Shown here: piece by piece, positions 3,132-17,948 of the stretch | How the letters are laid out: each line of letters starts with the position of its first letter | How positions within the stretch are numbered: position 1 is the first letter of the stretch | Assembly: GCA_963666365.2 (NCBI GenBank) | Contig: CAXXNF010000002.1 | Span: 160,001-224,000, forward strand | DNA: 64,000 bases | Source: Syntrophales bacterium | Lineage (GTDB): Bacteria; Desulfobacterota; Syntrophia; Syntrophales; UBA2210 | Direction of reading: 5' to 3' | Made by a program: the position numbers and the translations under genes | The notes under the pieces: model-generated | The model's input: only the letters and a program-made list of their open reading frames with translations | The model's database searches: none | Told to the model about the DNA's origin: nothing

Positions 3132-4034
3132 GTGGATCAGGCGGGAGTGCTGCGAAGAATGGGTAAAGCCGGAAATGAAGGGTATCTAGAGGAGGTCCCG
3201 GTGAGAAAAGGCCGAAGAATCAATGCCGACATCAAGGTTCTTGCCGTTACCAGCGGCAAGGGCGGTGTCGGTAAAACGAATATTGCGGCGAACATGGCCT
3301 ACCTGCTTTCAACAATGGGCAAGCGGGTTCTCCTGCTGGATGCAGATGCGGGACTGGCAAACATTGATGTGCTTCTTGGAATTTCTCCGCACTATAACCT
3401 TTCCCACCTTTTATGCGGAGAAAAGCCCCTTTCGGAGGTAATAGTGCGTGGGCCGGGGGGGATAATGATCATACCAGCGGCCTCAGGCATGCAGGAGATG
3501 ACGGAGCTGTCGGCAGGCCAGAAACTGACGCTTCTTGAGGAACTCGACAACTTCGATGAAAAACTCGATGTGATGATAATCGACACGGCAGCGGGGATTA
3601 CGGGAAACGTGATGTATTTCAATATGGCGGCCAAAGATATCGTTGTGGTCGTTTCTCCCGATCCCACTTCTCTTACCGATTCGTACGCCCTTATCAAAGT
3701 GTTGAGCCGGGGATACGCCACCCATCACTTTATGATTGTCGCCAATATGGTGAAGGATGCCGGCGAGGGATTTGAAGTGTATAAACGTTTGAGCAGTGCC
3801 ACCGGTCACTTTCTCAATGTGTCTGTCGATTATCTGGGGTATGTGGTAAGGGATCGTGCGGTGACGGAATCGATCAGACAGCAGAGCCTCTTCACGGAGA
3901 TATTTCCTTCGTCGCGGGCAAGCAGGCTTCTGGCTGCCATTGCCCGGGGTGTGTGCAATCAGGAGTTCGAGAGAAAAGACGACAATGGCATGATTAAATT
4001 TTTTGGGGACGCAGTCATTGGCCGGAATGATTGA
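3132..4034 (+). CDS. flhG: MinD/ParA-family flagellar number regulator FlhG (FleN)
   Basis: Deviant Walker A SGKGGVGKTN, DADAGLANID, PDPTSLTDSYALIK; between flhF and fliA. Confidence 0.93.
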   Translation: MDQAGVLRRMGKAGNEGYLEEVPVRKGRRINADIKVLAVTSGKGGVGKTNIAANMAYLLSTMGKRVLLLDADAGLANIDVLLGISPHYNLSHLLCGEKPLSEVIVRGPGGIMIIPAASGMQEMTELSAGQKLTLLEELDNFDEKLDVMIIDTAAGITGNVMYFNMAAKDIVVVVSPDPTSLTDSYALIKVLSRGYATHHFMIVANMVKDAGEGFEVYKRLSSATGHFLNVSVDYLGYVVRDRAVTESIRQQSLFTEIFPSSRASRLLAAIARGVCNQEFERKDDNGMIKFFGDAVIGRND

Positions 4035-4758
4035 CAGGAAAAAAAGGGATGCGCTGATCGTCAAGTATGCGCCGCTGGTGAAGCACATCGTGGATCGCTT
4101 TGCGATGAAATTGCCGCGCCATGTGGAAAAGGAAGATTTGATCAGCGTAGGAACGATCGGACTCATTTCCGCAATCGAACGGTATGACGAATCGCGGAAC
4201 GTCCGTTTCGAAACCTTTGCTCAGTTCAGGATCAGGGGCGCCATCCTGGATGAATTGAGGGCGCGGGACACCGTATCACGATCATCGCGCAGTAAGGATT
4301 CCAAACTCGAGCAGGCCTACGCCATCCTTCAGGGGGAATTGGGCAGAGCGCCGACCGACGAAGAGGTCGCCCGGCTTATGGGGCTTTCAATGGAAGAGTA
4401 TTTCAAGCTTCTCGATGACGCCCAGGGTGTCTCGATCCTGAGTCATGATGATCTGCCACCCGATTATTGTGAAAAATACGGTAATTCCGAAGTGATGGAG
4501 AAAATTGAACAGGACAATCCCCTGTCCGCAATTGTGGGGAAGGAATTACGCAGCACGTTGAAGGCGGCCATAGAAAATCTCCCCGAAAAAGAGAGCCTGG
4601 TGCTGGCGCTTTACTATTATGAAGATTTGACGCTGAAGGAAATCGGGGTGACCCTCGGCTTGACGGAATCCCGTATCTGTCAGATTCACTCCCGGGCGAT
4701 CCTGAAATTGCGCAGCCTGCTGAAAACAAAGGGTGCTCAAGAGGCTGCTATGGCCTGA
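4027..4758 (+). CDS. fliA: RNA polymerase sigma-28 factor FliA
   Basis: RIRGAILDELR, LYYYEDLTLKEIG..LGLTESRICQIH; ATG at 4027 overlaps the end of flhG. Confidence 0.95.
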   Translation: MIDRKKRDALIVKYAPLVKHIVDRFAMKLPRHVEKEDLISVGTIGLISAIERYDESRNVRFETFAQFRIRGAILDELRARDTVSRSSRSKDSKLEQAYAILQGELGRAPTDEEVARLMGLSMEEYFKLLDDAQGVSILSHDDLPPDYCEKYGNSEVMEKIEQDNPLSAIVGKELRSTLKAAIENLPEKESLVLALYYYEDLTLKEIGVTLGLTESRICQIHSRAILKLRSLLKTKGAQEAAMA

Positions 4759-4768
4759 GGATGACGAT

Positions 4769-5320
4769 ATGAAGAATGTGCGCTGCAGCGCCATAAAAAT
4801 GAAAAAGAACAGATTGAAGGGCGCGGAGATGTCGGCACTTGTAAGAATTTCGCTTCTTCTGCTCGTCACCGCGAGTTTCAGTTTCATGTCGGGAGGCATT
4901 CTTGGGCCGGGTGTTGGCGCGGCGCAGGCGAAGGAGTGGGGGCTTTTTGCGAAGGAGATAGTGAAGTTCTTCCGGAATGGCGATGACAGGGAGCACAGAG
5001 GTGAGAACAATAGGCCTTCCGATCAGGAATTACAGAAATATGAAGGATTTATGGTGCATGTTGCCGGGGAAAGAGCCGTGAAAAGGATAGTGCTCCTGGA
5101 TATTGCACTTGAAATTGAAATGGGTGAGGCACAGAGGGCGAACCACCAGCGTGAAATTCGAAAAATAATATATCGGACATCGAAGGAAATGCTTTCAGGG
5201 CGGGCACGATTTCCCCATGTGCAGAAAGGGTTGAAACAGGAAATTGAACGCCGTGTCAATCGGTGGATGAGACGCCCCTGTGTGAAGGGTGTCTATATCA
5301 CGCGTTTTATGGTGCTCTGA
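4769..5320 (+). CDS. Divergent FliL-like flagellar basal body-associated protein (start 4769 or 4829)
   Basis: N-terminal hydrophobic segment, 'FMVHV', 'EIRKII', 'LKQEIERRVN...VKGVYITRFMV' resemble the FliL C-terminal pattern; flagellar context. Confidence 0.65.
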   Translation: MKNVRCSAIKMKKNRLKGAEMSALVRISLLLLVTASFSFMSGGILGPGVGAAQAKEWGLFAKEIVKFFRNGDDREHRGENNRPSDQELQKYEGFMVHVAGERAVKRIVLLDIALEIEMGEAQRANHQREIRKIIYRTSKEMLSGRARFPHVQKGLKQEIERRVNRWMRRPCVKGVYITRFMVL

Positions 5321-5672: not shown

Positions 5673-5738
5673 GACGTGTGTGAGAGCCAATACTAAGGTG
5701 TGTTTTGTCTAAAAAGCAGAGAAGAAGGGGAGATCAGC

Positions 5739-6512
5739 ATGGAAAGGGAGAAAATCTACACGGATCTTGCGCGGCAGTTCGAAGGCACGTTCATTGAAGA
5801 GCTTATTCCCGGAATACTTCACAACTTTGCGAATCCTCTCAACGGGATTATGGGTCGTTCGAAACTGTTGCAGAAGCGCGCTCAGGATGTGTTTCCGTTA
5901 CTGATCGACCGGAACGTCGACAGGGAACTGATTGAAGAGGCATACGGCAAGATTTTGCGGGATATAGATCTGATCTCGCAGGAATCTGACAGACTCTACG
6001 ATTTATTCAATGATGTGGCGGCGAAGGTTCACCGGTTGCATAATAATAACAGCCAGTTGATCAATATATCAGAACTGGTAGAATCAGAGATCGCGTTTTT
6101 CGACTTCTATCTTGATTTTAAACACAAAGTGGAAAAAAATCTGGCGCTGAACCGGGATATCCCCTTGCTGGAGGGAGCGCCTTCGGACTACTCGATGGCG
6201 ATGTCAACAATCATTCGGCATGCCATGGAATCCATGGATGCCTGTGAGGTGCGCCGGCTTTCCATTTCTACGGATTGTGATCCGGATTATGTATATGTGA
6301 CATTTCAAGATACGGGGAATCATCACAATGCGGCGGCAATTGCTGATTTCTGTCGCCACGCGGATTTTGATTCGCCCGGTGGGGTAAATTTGAACGGAAG
6401 CCGCAATCTTATCGGTGCAATGGCGCTTTTGAAAAAATATGATGCCCGTTTTACCGTTGAGGATGACGAGGGACACTTTCGATTCTCCGTAATAATCCCT
6501 TATAAGAGATAG
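5739..6512 (+). CDS. Sensor-less histidine kinase-like protein with degenerate ATPase domain (putative pseudokinase)
   Basis: H-box-like GILHNFANPLNGI near the N-terminus; N-box reads TIIRHA, G1 reads DTGNH, no GxGLGL G2 box; SD GGGGAG before ATG 5739. Confidence 0.75.
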   Translation: MEREKIYTDLARQFEGTFIEELIPGILHNFANPLNGIMGRSKLLQKRAQDVFPLLIDRNVDRELIEEAYGKILRDIDLISQESDRLYDLFNDVAAKVHRLHNNNSQLINISELVESEIAFFDFYLDFKHKVEKNLALNRDIPLLEGAPSDYSMAMSTIIRHAMESMDACEVRRLSISTDCDPDYVYVTFQDTGNHHNAAAIADFCRHADFDSPGGVNLNGSRNLIGAMALLKKYDARFTVEDDEGHFRFSVIIPYKR

Positions 6513-6836: not shown

Positions 6837-7307
6837 ATGGATCTCCGAATTATACTTGCGCTGCATGTGTGCATCGATATCGCCCTCTGCGCCGTAATAC
6901 TGATGCTTCTGAGGAAAGTGGCGATATTGACGAGGGATGGAGGGAGGGAAGGTGATGCTCCCGTCTGGCAGGACACCGCTTCTATCTCGAAAAAGGCCAC
7001 TCCTCTGAGTTTTGTAGAAACACTGGATAGTACCCTTACGGACAGCCATCCTGAGAAAAAAGACGGTGTTCCCGCCGAAAAGATGCCAAGAGTCCGTAAA
7101 GGAAAAGGGTGGTTGAAACGAATAATGAATTTTTTCCCCGGCAGGGATGCGTCACAAGATTCCATGTCGTCAGAGCGGTATCGGGCAGCGGTCAATCTCG
7201 CATCACAGGGGGTGTCCCTGGAACGCATCGCTGCAGAACTGGGACTCACTGAGGGAGAAATATCCCTTGTGCTTGATCTTGACCGCACCAGGAATGAGAG
7301 TCGCTGA
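6837..7307 (+). CDS. Membrane-anchored protein with C-terminal HTH-like segment (DUF2802/DUF6115-like)
   Basis: N-terminal TM helix; C-terminal LASQGVSLERIAAELGLTEGEISLVL. Confidence 0.6.
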   Translation: MDLRIILALHVCIDIALCAVILMLLRKVAILTRDGGREGDAPVWQDTASISKKATPLSFVETLDSTLTDSHPEKKDGVPAEKMPRVRKGKGWLKRIMNFFPGRDASQDSMSSERYRAAVNLASQGVSLERIAAELGLTEGEISLVLDLDRTRNESR

Positions 7308-8470
7308 TGCCCATGATTCCGGCGTCACTAATCACTTCAGTTAATTCGCGTCTTGCAATTAATCCGGGAAATTCGGCTTCCTCAATGAAGGGGCTGCCCC
7401 CTCTTGCCGTTGGAGAGGTGGTGCCTGCGCTTATTATGGAAAGCCGGGGCGGACAACAGGCGGTACTGCTGGTGAAGGGAAGTCTTGTGACGGCCCAGTC
7501 CGATCTGCCTCTCAAGAGGGGAGAGCGTCGAATGCTCGTGGTCGAAAAGCTGACCCCTCAGGTAGTGTTTAAAGTGCTTTCCGGAAACGGCTTATCCACC
7601 TCTCATGTAAATGATGCGCTTCGGCATGTACGCATGCATCCACAGTCCATTTTTCAAATGTTCTCTGAGGCCCATGCGCTCTTACGGGAGGGAGAACTTT
7701 CGGTATTGACGGATCTTCTGGGAAAGAGCGATACGGAAAAGCTGATTTCCCTGATACGATCTCTGGTGTATTCAGGAAACAGCCGGGGTGAACCGTATTT
7801 TTTAAAAGACTATCTTGAAAGAATTGGATTTCTTATGGAGCATGAACTTGCAGGCGCCGCAGCGAAACGGTTCGGCAAGGCCTGGAAAGCGCAGGGTGCG
7901 GCGGAAAACCTGAAGGTCCTTCTGATGAGCATGGGAGATAAGTTGCGTACGGCTGAGGCCGGACAAAGTCGAGTATCCCTGGGGAGGATCGGTAGATTTA
8001 TCAACGATTTTCTAAAAGCTATTGAAACGCACCAGGTACTGAACAGTGTGCTCCAAGAGTGTGAAAGGACCTACGTCTTCCAGGTGCCTCTCCACTGTGC
8101 CGCGCAGATAAGAATGGCTGAGATTTGTATCACCCTTCGTGATGAATCCGGGGAGGGGCATGATGAGGAAACGGTTGTAACCAGGGTCCAGGTGTTTCTT
8201 GATCTGGATTCACTGGGTCCCCTTCTGGTGAAAACGAACATAGTCGCAGTGACTCGCAGTCTGGAGTGCCGCATTATCTGCGACAGTGACGAGGCATCGC
8301 AGTATATCGCCCCGTTTCTCCATGAATTGCACGAAGGGCTGACGAGCACCACCGGCTGTCGTGTCAAGGAACTGACATGCAGCGTCGGCGATGTCGGCAC
8401 GGAGAGGCGCAATGCAGTGGAAGACTACATGAACTCCTTGAAAATGGAAGTTGTCGATGTGGTGGTATAA
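7307..8470 (+). CDS. FliK-like (hook-length control C-terminal domain) protein
   Basis: C-terminal FQVPL...VFLDLDSLGPLLV...LHELHEGL...VVDVVV pattern; directly upstream of a FlhB-C-like gene. Confidence 0.6.
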   Translation: MPMIPASLITSVNSRLAINPGNSASSMKGLPPLAVGEVVPALIMESRGGQQAVLLVKGSLVTAQSDLPLKRGERRMLVVEKLTPQVVFKVLSGNGLSTSHVNDALRHVRMHPQSIFQMFSEAHALLREGELSVLTDLLGKSDTEKLISLIRSLVYSGNSRGEPYFLKDYLERIGFLMEHELAGAAAKRFGKAWKAQGAAENLKVLLMSMGDKLRTAEAGQSRVSLGRIGRFINDFLKAIETHQVLNSVLQECERTYVFQVPLHCAAQIRMAEICITLRDESGEGHDEETVVTRVQVFLDLDSLGPLLVKTNIVAVTRSLECRIICDSDEASQYIAPFLHELHEGLTSTTGCRVKELTCSVGDVGTERRNAVEDYMNSLKMEVVDVVV

Positions 8471-8482
8471 GGAGCTGCGACA

Positions 8483-8779
8483 ATGGCTGTGAAAAAAGAT
8501 CCCGATATATCTGTTGCTGCAGCAGTAGAGTACCACGGTGCCCGGGACCAGGCGCCGCGGCTTACCGCGAAAGGGCGGGGTGCAATCGCCGAAAAAATTA
8601 TCGAACTGGCACAGAAACACAAGGTGCCTATTCGAAAGGACCCGTCCCTGGTGGAAATCCTCAGCAGGCTCGATATTGGTGAAGAAATCCCGCCGGAATT
8701 GTATCGAGCCGTGGCGGAAATCTTTGCCTTCCTTTACAAAATGAACGAGAAACACAGAGATCTGGGCCGCCATTCCTGA
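8483..8779 (+). CDS. Stand-alone FlhB C-terminal domain protein (EscU/YscU/HrcU family, FlhX/YlqH-like)
   Basis: APRLTAKGRGAIAEKIIELA...VPI...EEIPPELYRAVAEIFAFLY. Confidence 0.9.
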   Translation: MAVKKDPDISVAAAVEYHGARDQAPRLTAKGRGAIAEKIIELAQKHKVPIRKDPSLVEILSRLDIGEEIPPELYRAVAEIFAFLYKMNEKHRDLGRHS

Positions 8780-9046: not shown

Positions 9047-9062
9047 TGGCACACCGCTTGCT
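9047..9062 (+). promoter_or_regulatory. Sigma54 (-24/-12) promoter of the flgF operon
   Basis: TGGCAC-ACCGC-TTGCT matches TGGCAC-N5-TTGC exactly, 28 bp before the flgF start. Confidence 0.88.
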
Positions 9063-13615: not shown

Positions 13616-13921
13616 ATGAAGGTATCGGAGACCAGGAACCAGGCCAGCGAATTGATTCAGCAGTACAAGATACACGAAAAAGCTGCCTCCGGTCACGAAA
13701 AGCGGGTATCCGGAAAAGCCGCTCACGAGGAGAGGGTAAGCCTTTCGGAAAAGGCGAGGGATATCAATCAGGCAAAGGCGGTCATTGCAGAGCTGCCCGA
13801 GGTGCGGGAAGAGAAGGTGATGGAACTGAAACACCGGATCGAAGAAGGAACGTACCGGGTGGACGGGGGAAAAGTGGCCGATAAAATGATTGAAGAATCC
13901 CTGCTGGATATTTTTGCATAG
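13616..13921 (+). CDS. flgM: Anti-sigma28 factor FlgM
   Basis: ERVSLSEKA, PEVREEKVMELKHRIEEGTYRVDGGKVADKMI. Confidence 0.92.
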   Translation: MKVSETRNQASELIQQYKIHEKAASGHEKRVSGKAAHEERVSLSEKARDINQAKAVIAELPEVREEKVMELKHRIEEGTYRVDGGKVADKMIEESLLDIFA

Positions 13922-17249: not shown

Positions 17250-17498
17250 ATGCTGGTACTGACGCGCAAAGGCGGCGAATCGATCAGGATTGGGACTTCC
17301 ATTAAGATATCGGTGCTTGATGTAAAGGGAAGCCAAGTGAAGATCGGAATAGAAGCACCGGAAGATGTGGCTGTCTATAGAGAGGAACTGTTTTCTGTTG
17401 TGGAGGCGGAAAATACCTCAGCCGCATCCTCGGGGATTGCGTCTGAGACAAACCTTAACGCCCTTTGGGATGTCTTGCACAAAGAGGAGGAAATGTAA
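17250..17498 (+). CDS. csrA: Carbon storage regulator CsrA
   Basis: [29 protein letters not shown] with C-terminal extension EAENTSAA. Confidence 0.95.
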
Positions 17499-17501
17499 TC
17501 C

Positions 17502-17948
17502 GTGATGGATTCTATGGCACGATATATAGATGGAAAGGAGGGGTCTGAGCCTCGGATAATCCGGATGAGAAGGGGAATTCTCGGGTTTGAAAGACTTGTG
17601 CAGTTCGTCTTTCTCCCGCAGGAAGAAACGGCCCCTTTCCGGCAAATTCGCGCCCCTGAGGATGGAACGACATTCGTGGTAATCGATCCTTTTATAGTCA
17701 AGCCGGACTATCAGCCATTTATTCCGGACAGGGATGTGCGCTTATTGGAAATTGACGATGCAGACGATGTCATCGTGTTGAACATTGTCACCATTCACCG
17801 GACCCCTCTCAACGCCACGATCAACCTCAGAGCGCCACTGGTCGTGAATGCAAAGCGGGGATTGGCCGCACAAGTTGTCCTTGAGGACGATGCATATCCC
17901 CTTCGTTTCCCGCTGGGGGGAAACACTCAAACTACAGTGAAGGCATGA
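17502..17948 (+). CDS. fliW: Flagellar assembly factor FliW
   Basis: GILGFE, FVVIDPF..PDY, TINLRAPLVVN..QVVLE..YPLRFPL; follows csrA. Confidence 0.92.
   Translation: MMDSMARYIDGKEGSEPRIIRMRRGILGFERLVQFVFLPQEETAPFRQIRAPEDGTTFVVIDPFIVKPDYQPFIPDRDVRLLEIDDADDVIVLNIVTIHRTPLNATINLRAPLVVNAKRGLAAQVVLEDDAYPLRFPLGGNTQTTVKA

Follow-up and report, generated by a model that had tools for sequence, protein, structure and literature searches.

A 64,000-nucleotide stretch of the genome of a Syntrophales bacterium (GenBank assembly GCA_963666365.2, contig CAXXNF010000002.1, positions 160,001–224,000 of the forward strand; hereafter the window) carries, within a flagellar gene cluster, the gene for a kinase-dead histidine-kinase-like protein that we call HKL. 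We establish that HKL is a protein of the DHp–CA type (dimerisation and histidine-phosphotransfer hairpin followed by a catalytic and ATP-binding domain) whose ATP site is dead, and that it is conserved, under selection and tied to flagellar clusters. As to its role, HKL may dephosphorylate a receiver domain in motility signalling or exchange phosphate with it, the best candidate partner being a regulator with REC, GAF and HD-GYP domains; we hold this proposal with slightly less than even confidence.

The HKL reading frame starts at ATG 5739, 6 nt behind a ribosome-binding site that was rated good (AAGGGGAG, 5725–5732); the longest open reading frame in the same frame begins at GTG 5700. No membrane segment is present in HKL, whose richest 19-residue stretch holds 11 hydrophobic residues. 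The codon of the phospho-acceptor residue His28 is CAC (5820–5822). Reading frame, hydrophobicity and structural model thus bear out the initial annotation of this DNA, which had described a cytoplasmic protein of 257 residues with a DHp His codon at 5820. The H-box is of the NtrB type, HxxxNPL, and residues H28, N29, F30, P33, L34, N35, G36, G39 and R40 are invariant in an alignment of 38 sequences (alignment A1). The positions of all features are given in Table 1.

Loss of the ATP-binding boxes was judged by profile alignment of HKL to paralogues from the same phylum that bear NAxDAM, DTGCGI, FDPFFTTK and GxGLGL. In the corresponding columns HKL reads IIRHAM and DTGNH, followed by an unrelated variable stretch. 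The degenerate N-box (TIIRHA) and G1 box (DTGNH) and the missing F and G2 boxes that had been noted in the initial annotation are therefore confirmed column by column. A residue count covers 81 sequences, consisting of the window and 80 named loci whose retrieval relied on the patterns HNFANPLN and FYLDFKH. At the position of the catalytic Asn, 79 of these sequences have a residue, which is Tyr (40), Phe (16), His (13), Arg (5), Ser (2), Asn (2) or Cys (1), which means that the N-box Asn is absent from 77 of the 79. The second glycine of G1 is mostly replaced by Pro, Ala or His among the 81 sequences, and a Gly-rich stretch resembling G2 occurs in only one of them (L143).

A profile search over all 1.84 billion representatives, which is free of the retrieval bias that comes with an H-box pattern, gave 6540 matches at E ≤ 0.001 and 89 at E ≤ 1e-30. 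Clade counts were taken from the best 150 representatives; the H-box region is aligned in 122 of them, and both the H-box and the ATP-site regions are aligned in 110. The phospho-acceptor His is kept in all 122. Among the 110, N, G1 and F are all missing from 56 sequences and all present in 32, and a further 15 have N and G1 without F. The residue at H+4 is Asn in the HKL family and Asn, Thr or Ser across the wider clade. The degenerate state of the ATP site is found throughout the Syntrophales, and the orthologues of HKL share its degenerate boxes. Judged by sequence against a competent HisKA kinase, HKL possesses the phospho-acceptor His, lacks the four ATP-site boxes (N, G1, F, G2) as well as the acidic residue at H+1, and stays below the Pfam HisKA threshold.

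The H+1 position deserves separate treatment, as the initial annotation had taken its Asn for the mark of a pseudokinase. As far as the available text of PMC3510030 goes, HisKA kinases require the acidic residue at H+1 for kinase activity and Thr or Asn at H+4 for phosphatase activity. We find Asn at H+1 in 118 of the 122 aligned representatives, and none of the 32 whose N, G1 and F boxes are complete is an exception. Since kinases with complete boxes have it, the H+1 Asn is a trait of the clade and not a sign of lost kinase activity, and this part of the initial annotation does not hold. The HKL copy of G419, a genome of the same family (L167, G419:C2:1148500-1151500), reads HDFASPL, with Asp at H+1 and Ser at H+4, while its ATP site has decayed to the same degree; position H+1 thus switches between residues within the dead family. 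A TAG stop in the G419 copy falls outside the part that aligns to HKL residues 7–255, and the copy therefore looks intact. The kinase clade with Asn at H+1 is large; it is represented by sequences P0175–P0269 and loci L010–L031 and L046–L083, and it contains several independent lid-less lineages.

In Pfam, HKL matches HisKA below threshold only (20.3 bits; gathering cut-off 26.9), and at E ≤ 0.01 there is no match to either HATPase_c or HPTransfase (PF10090). The NCBIfam scores are far under their cut-offs (AtoS, 18.8 versus 646; NifL and NtrB likewise), and comparison with the sequences of the PDB gives weak similarity at the H-box only, with a best E of 0.082. An AlphaFold2 model, built from a 38-sequence alignment (pLDDT 89.9, pTM 0.84), predicts a long helical hairpin (residues 3–56 and 62–101) followed by an alpha/beta domain. 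With this model as a query, Foldseek matches whole DHp–CA kinases, among them HK853 (E 1e-11), DivL, YycG, RetS and ChpT. The CA-like domain (residues 103–257) superimposes in VIA-align on the CA domain of ThkA with a Z score of 16.3 and a root-mean-square deviation of 2.4 Å over 145 residues; the score for NtrB is 15.6, and the CA domains of ThkA, NtrB and VanS span Z scores of 15.6–16.3. From these superpositions on solved catalytic domains, the predicted fold is that of a complete kinase core, and we assign HKL on the basis of the model a DHp plus Bergerat-fold CA architecture.

We calculated dN/dS (the ratio of nonsynonymous to synonymous substitution rates) by the Nei–Gojobori method for 166 pairs of HKL orthologues that are 70–97% identical; the pairs are related and hence not independent of one another, and their median of 0.13 lies far under 1. 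The DHp hairpin (0.09) and the CA core (0.10) have lower values than the former lid (0.33). HKL is therefore maintained, including its dead domain. Together with the degeneracy of the ATP site across the whole of the Syntrophales, the low ratio shows that the boxes have not decayed recently in the window genome. By group, the values are 0.09–0.15 around G370 (L150, L155, L158 and L161) and 0.27–0.8, over short distances, around G394.

The link to the flagellum is seen both in gene order and in co-occurrence. The 80 named loci come nearly all from metagenome-assembled genomes of Syntrophales, Syntrophaceae or Smithellaceae. Flagellar neighbours were detected by tblastn at 69 of them; two loci are too short to judge, and L156, one of the other nine, has flgN and a flagellin gene according to Pfam. 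Where at least 2 kb of upstream flank is available, fliA lies upstream of HKL in 55 of 64 loci, and of the 65 loci with at least 2.5 kb of flank, 56 have the downstream block. HKL also follows fliA in 11 of 20 loci that were fetched around matches in a sample of the phylum. In a sample of 61 genomes of the order, HKL is present in 29 of 32 FlhA-positive and in 3 of 29 FlhA-negative genomes; three genomes have FlhA only (G442, G446 and G447), three have HKL only (G394, G407 and G410) and 26 have neither. The distance between HKL and flhA is about 4–8 kb, on the same contig, in 26 of the 29 genomes that have both. G407 is probably flagellated, since a flagellin gene adjoins HKL and the genome is 85% complete. 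By its fixed position after fliA, in a block with the FliL-like gene, the small protein, the small conserved protein and the DUF2802 gene of the FipA/FlrD type, and by its co-occurrence with flagella, HKL is a conserved accessory gene of the flagellar clusters of Syntrophales.

Three genomes keep HKL without FlhA, FliP and flagellin, namely G394 (99% complete, one contig), G370 (98%) and G410 (100%). In G410 the locus (L165, G410:C57, 3411-9493) is a remnant of the switch complex that lacks export apparatus and filament. According to a survey, in the part of its text available (PMC13685792), Smithella lost flagella as a block and often retained chemotaxis genes.

The block formed by a FliL-like gene, HKL, a gene for a protein of about 100 residues and a DUF2802 gene is also present in other families of the phylum. 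Relatives of HKL in these families (L038 and L040–L042) keep the N-box Asn and DTGCGI and have neither F nor G2, and a fully intact short kinase is encoded about 1 kb after fliA in G109. In L045, from another family (G387:C4, 9059-10183), the gene at the position of HKL encodes 374 residues with an extra N-terminal PAS domain; in this locus, fliA is separated from the FliL-like gene by genes for a REC-GAF kinase and a REC-TPR protein. In a FastTree phylogeny (57 domain sequences, midpoint rooting, no support values), the Syntrophales group stands on a long branch, and neither the lid-less group next to fliA nor the intact copy of G109 joins it there. A stepwise decay within one lineage, from intact through lid-less to fully degenerate, is thus not shown by the tree, though the shared neighbours argue for a single lineage. 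The best explanation is that HKL arose from a clade of histidine kinases without sensor domains and lost the ability to bind ATP.

In the window genome, the flagellar cluster is headed by an FlrB-like PAS kinase, in which all boxes are intact, and an FlrC-like activator of the NtrC type, directly before flgB (G000:C2:136324-139042; L052:11324-14042). Upstream of the window, the cluster comprises flgBC, fliEFG, fliI, fliK, flgDE, motAB, fliLMNOPQR and flhB. These genes are followed by flhA, flhF, flhG, fliA, the FliL-like gene, a gene for a 105-residue protein, HKL and a gene for a conserved 105-residue protein, then by the genes for the DUF2802 protein, a 387-residue protein and a stand-alone FlhB C-terminal domain, and finally by flgFGAHIJ, flgM, flgN, flgK, flagellin, csrA and fliW. 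The genes downstream of HKL are tightly packed, with a 6-nt gap, a 1-nt gap and then an overlap. The conserved protein encoded directly after HKL has a Gln-rich N-terminal helix with the motif MVRAIDxQQxLLQ..ERVQQxQQQHxDxQQRYF, a charged and variable middle part and a C-terminal GGxIDIKV (alignment A3). DUF2802 is the domain of FlrD, the Vibrio cholerae orthologue of FipA, for which signalling to, or regulation of, FlrB/FlrC has been proposed (PMC3930126, available text); FipA itself binds FlhF in gammaproteobacteria, as stated in the accessible part of PMC11620751. The stand-alone FlhB C-terminal domain comes on top of the full-length flhB upstream of the window. The csrA–fliW pair (17250–17948, + strand) directly follows the flagellin gene and constitutes a module for post-transcriptional control of flagellin.

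Table 1. HKL, its sequence elements and the neighbouring features in the window (window coordinates)
Feature	Position	Strand	Remarks
HKL (kinase-dead histidine-kinase-like protein)	5739–6512	+	257 aa, soluble; DHp hairpin at residues ~3–101, CA-like domain at residues ~103–257
HKL H-box GILHNFANPLNGIMGR	5811–5858	+	Residues 25–40; His28, Asn29 (H+1) and Asn32 (H+4) each invariant in the 38-sequence alignment A1
HKL N-box equivalent STIIRHAM	6204–6227	+	Residues 156–163; His161 in the column of the catalytic Asn
HKL G1 equivalent FQDTGNH	6303–6323	+	Residues 189–195; second Gly of DxGxG missing
HKL former ATP-lid region	6315–6416	+	Residues 193–226; variable, no F or G2 box, constraint relaxed; pLDDT <50 at residues 213–215
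fliA (sigma28)	4003–4758	+	Conserved upstream neighbour of HKL
FliL-like membrane protein	4733–5320	+	Second copy; canonical fliL further upstream in the cluster
Small protein, 105 aa	5355–5672	+	Hydrophobic N-terminus; no family match; upstream of HKL in 39/80 loci by tblastn
Small conserved protein, 105 aa	6518–6835	+	Starts 6 nt past the HKL stop; no Pfam or NCBIfam match; downstream of HKL in 52/80 loci
DUF2802 membrane protein, FipA/FlrD type	6837–7307	+	
387-aa protein	7307–8470	+	No family match; conserved downstream, 56/80 loci
Stand-alone FlhB C-terminal-domain protein	8483–8779	+	TIGR00789 flhB_rel, 108.4 bits (cut-off 117.35); Pfam Bac_export_2, 68.7 bits
Sigma54-type promoter match TGGCACACCGCTTGC	9047–9061	+	~30 nt upstream of flgF; sole zero-mismatch −24/−12 match in the window
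flgM (anti-sigma28)	13616–13921	+	PF04316, 73.1 bits, G000:C2:173733-173894

With the ATP site lost, HKL would be unable to autophosphorylate from ATP, and its DHp four-helix bundle would therefore be expected to dock a receiver domain instead. The docked receiver might be dephosphorylated by HKL, the H+4 Asn being the phosphatase residue of HisKA kinases; alternatively, HKL could exchange phosphate with the receiver through His28 and so act as a sink or a relay. By either route HKL would tune a motility response regulator. The first candidate for this partner is the REC-GAF-HD-GYP regulator, a protein that resembles RpfG and belongs to the phosphodiesterase type acting on cyclic di-GMP (c-di-GMP); an FlrC-like activator and CheY-type proteins seem less likely. 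Inputs that report the assembly status of the flagellum could come from the FipA/FlrD-like neighbour, from FlhG or from the small conserved protein.

The evidence for the HD-GYP regulator as the partner of HKL is one of adjacency and is suggestive. In G394 and three related loci (L116, L123, L128 and L145 taken together), a REC-GAF-HD_5 regulator of the HD-GYP type stands beside HKL, with a 121-residue open reading frame on the opposite strand between the two genes. In G410, the order is FliG, FliM, FliN, FlhG, HKL, an 82-residue open reading frame and the REC-GAF-HD-GYP regulator, and in L138 a remnant of fliA is followed by HKL, a 71-residue open reading frame, the regulator, trmFO and topA. 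The regulator closes the flagellar cluster of the flagellated G268, where it comes after flgM and flgN. In another family, intact short paralogues of HKL are found in clusters that contain a REC-GAF-HD_5 protein, a PilZ protein, the short kinase, CheZ and an HDOD kinase. The regulator of the window genome (C2:1415869-1417353) is 46% identical to that of G394 and is followed by the gene for a PilZ protein (the two together at G000:C2:1415869-1418325; L164:7869-10325). Their surroundings hold a PAS kinase, which matches HATPase_c and not HisKA, an HDOD protein and a che cluster that comprises CheA, CheB, two CheX and three CheY-like genes.

It should be noted that a number of observations weigh against assigning HKL to a receiver, and to this receiver in particular. 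In the window genome itself, the REC-GAF-HD-GYP regulator is encoded 1.25 Mb away from HKL and next to a PAS kinase of its own, and at E ≤ 1e-60 no orthologue of the regulator was found in G370, which keeps HKL. The loci L116, L123, L128 and L145 represent a single lineage, and adjacency to the regulator may in part be a by-product of deletions between the two ends of the flagellar cluster, as a comparison of G268 with L138 indicates. The invariance of His28 in the 80 named loci is partly circular, because the retrieval pattern contained the H-box. Not all copies next to fliA fall into a single clade in the FastTree phylogeny of the 57 sequences. Finally, 26 of the 29 FlhA-negative genomes of the order sample have no HKL, and a role bound to the flagellum is therefore equally compatible with the data.

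Should the regulator be the partner of HKL, a circuit of a kind that has not been described can be imagined. HKL, situated at the nascent motor, would couple the state of the basal body (C-ring, FlhG and the FipA-like anchor) to c-di-GMP by draining or relaying the phosphate of the REC-GAF-HD-GYP regulator, and would in this way set the c-di-GMP level for a PilZ effector; it would be of enough use for the G410 lineage to have kept FliG-FliM-FliN-FlhG-HKL-regulator as a signalling module once export apparatus and filament were lost. We consider this circuit speculative and give it a small probability.

The alternative that survives best, although we regard it as unlikely, is that HKL works without phosphate, as a scaffold of the DivL or RetS type that binds a response regulator, the DHp of another kinase or flagellar proteins such as FlhG, FliM/FliN, the FipA-like protein or the small conserved protein and allosterically alters what they do or where they are located. 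His28 would then serve structure or binding only. The model of HKL matches DivL (4q20) and RetS in addition to true kinases, and selection holds the dead CA core as firmly as the DHp (dN/dS 0.10 versus 0.09), which suggests that the surface of the CA domain is in use. The close linkage of HKL to the genes of the small conserved protein and of the FipA-like protein also fits a scaffold, as does G410, which holds FliG-FliM-FliN-FlhG-HKL together without the export apparatus. Nevertheless, both His28 and the H+4 Asn are invariant, and this goes beyond what a purely structural role predicts.

Rather improbable is the target proposed in the initial annotation, by which HKL would be a phosphotransferase or phosphatase specific to the FlrC-like sigma54 activator of flgF and other middle genes and would operate an assembly checkpoint. 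An FlrB-like PAS kinase and an FlrC-like activator do head the same cluster, the promoter match predicted ahead of flgF was indeed found (TGGCACACCGCTTGC, a perfect fit to the −24/−12 elements), the H-box of HKL is of the NtrB type (HxxxNPL), and HKL and flagella co-occur strongly. In addition, the DUF2802 neighbour corresponds to FlrD of V. cholerae, which the available text of PMC3930126 treats as a proposed regulator of FlrB/FlrC. However, the complete cognate kinase of FlrC already adjoins it, and G370, G394 and G410 keep HKL (with dN/dS at 0.09–0.15 in the G370 group) without an FlrC orthologue. Their best FlrC matches show 43–44% identity, the level of paralogues, compared with 60–61% for the orthologues on the flagellar contig in the flagellated genomes G116 and G268; the same three genomes also lack FlhA, FliP and flagellin. 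We therefore consider FlrC doubtful as the target of HKL. Overall, what the initial annotation had said or anticipated about the degenerate ATP site, the invariant His, conserved synteny, purifying selection, the sigma54 promoter and a flagellar activator of the NtrC type has stood, and the meaning given to the H+1 residue and the FlrC target have not.

It is very unlikely that HKL is still a kinase, either by binding nucleotide in a non-canonical manner or by receiving phosphate in trans from another kinase's CA domain. The protein still has the CA fold and a lid region of unchanged length, and among the fliA-adjacent relatives some keep the N-box Asn and DTGCGI without F and G2 (L038–L042, L045) and one is intact (G109), so that the loss of boxes is graded. 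Against this, 77 of 79 sequences have Tyr, Phe, His, Arg or another residue in place of the Asn that binds Mg-ATP, the second glycine of G1 and the entire lid with F and G2 are missing, the lid is the least constrained part of the protein, and HKL has no HATPase_c match. A role of HKL as a GHKL-type partner or anti-sigma factor of FliA, to which one might be led by the position of fliA upstream in 55 of 64 loci with enough flank and by the fact that anti-sigma factors of the SpoIIAB/RsbW type are GHKL proteins, is highly improbable and was set aside: such proteins lack a DHp bearing a phospho-acceptor His, which HKL has and conserves, HKL persists where no intact fliA adjoins it, and a canonical flgM in the same cluster means that HKL is not needed as an antagonist of FliA.

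HKL resembles the class formed by ChpT, Spo0B, DivL and RetS, and by sequence it is a member of none of these families. Like ChpT and Spo0B, HKL is predicted to combine a helical dimerisation module of the DHp type, carrying a His, with a CA-like domain that does not bind ATP. The likeness to ChpT of Caulobacter (4fpp_A) is found in Foldseek at E 1.6e-9 (rank 39); Spo0B is absent from the structural matches listed for HKL. Unlike ChpT, HKL does not belong to Pfam HPTransfase and comes from a different kinase clade, with an HxxxNPL H-box, and its block encodes no hybrid kinase or upstream receiver beside it. Among the look-alike clusters of HKL in an atlas, PF10090 is present in 29–33% of the members in those of ranks 7 and 20 only. 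The model of HKL also matches DivL (4q20; Foldseek rank 7, VIA-align Z 15.6) and RetS (6dk7; Z 15.7), whose output, like the one presumed for HKL, is not ATP-driven autophosphorylation. DivL has a Tyr instead of the phospho-acceptor His; HKL differs from it in keeping an invariant His. Both DivL and RetS are large multi-domain proteins that work by contacts with other proteins, whereas HKL is a bare DHp–CA unit.

Complete kinases have been compared as well. FlrB, FleS and FlgS are cytoplasmic kinases that are encoded with flagellar genes and gate the sigma54-dependent middle genes on assembly status (for FlgS, see the available part of PMC3760246). They are complete, whereas HKL is an ATP-site-dead protein after fliA, in addition to the genome's own complete FlrB/FlrC-like pair at the head of the cluster. 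With EnvZ, HK853 and CrdS, HKL shares the H+4 residue, in which Asn is needed for phosphatase and not for kinase activity, as far as the text available for PMC3510030 shows; those kinases have an acidic residue at H+1 and a working CA domain, in contrast to the clade-wide Asn and the missing ATP boxes of HKL. A literature search, with most subscription journals beyond its reach, gave no published description of HKL. Our analysis adds the clade-wide Asn at H+1, the dN/dS values, the co-occurrence counts, the retention of HKL without flagella and the link to the HD-GYP regulator.

Kinase-shaped proteins without an ATP site (ChpT, Spo0B, DivL and RetS) have each exposed a new principle of two-component wiring, and HKL is a compact and strongly conserved example of such proteins inside a flagellar cluster. 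It is a defined candidate for the sensing of assembly status, in a checkpoint of the FlrBC or FlgSR type, and for the target of FlrD/FipA-type signalling. Its hosts are mostly uncultured syntrophs, in which everything beyond sequence and predicted fold is a matter of inference. In these organisms, the link to the HD-GYP regulator and the C-ring genes that were kept without a flagellum suggest that HKL may link the assembly of the flagellum to signalling by c-di-GMP.

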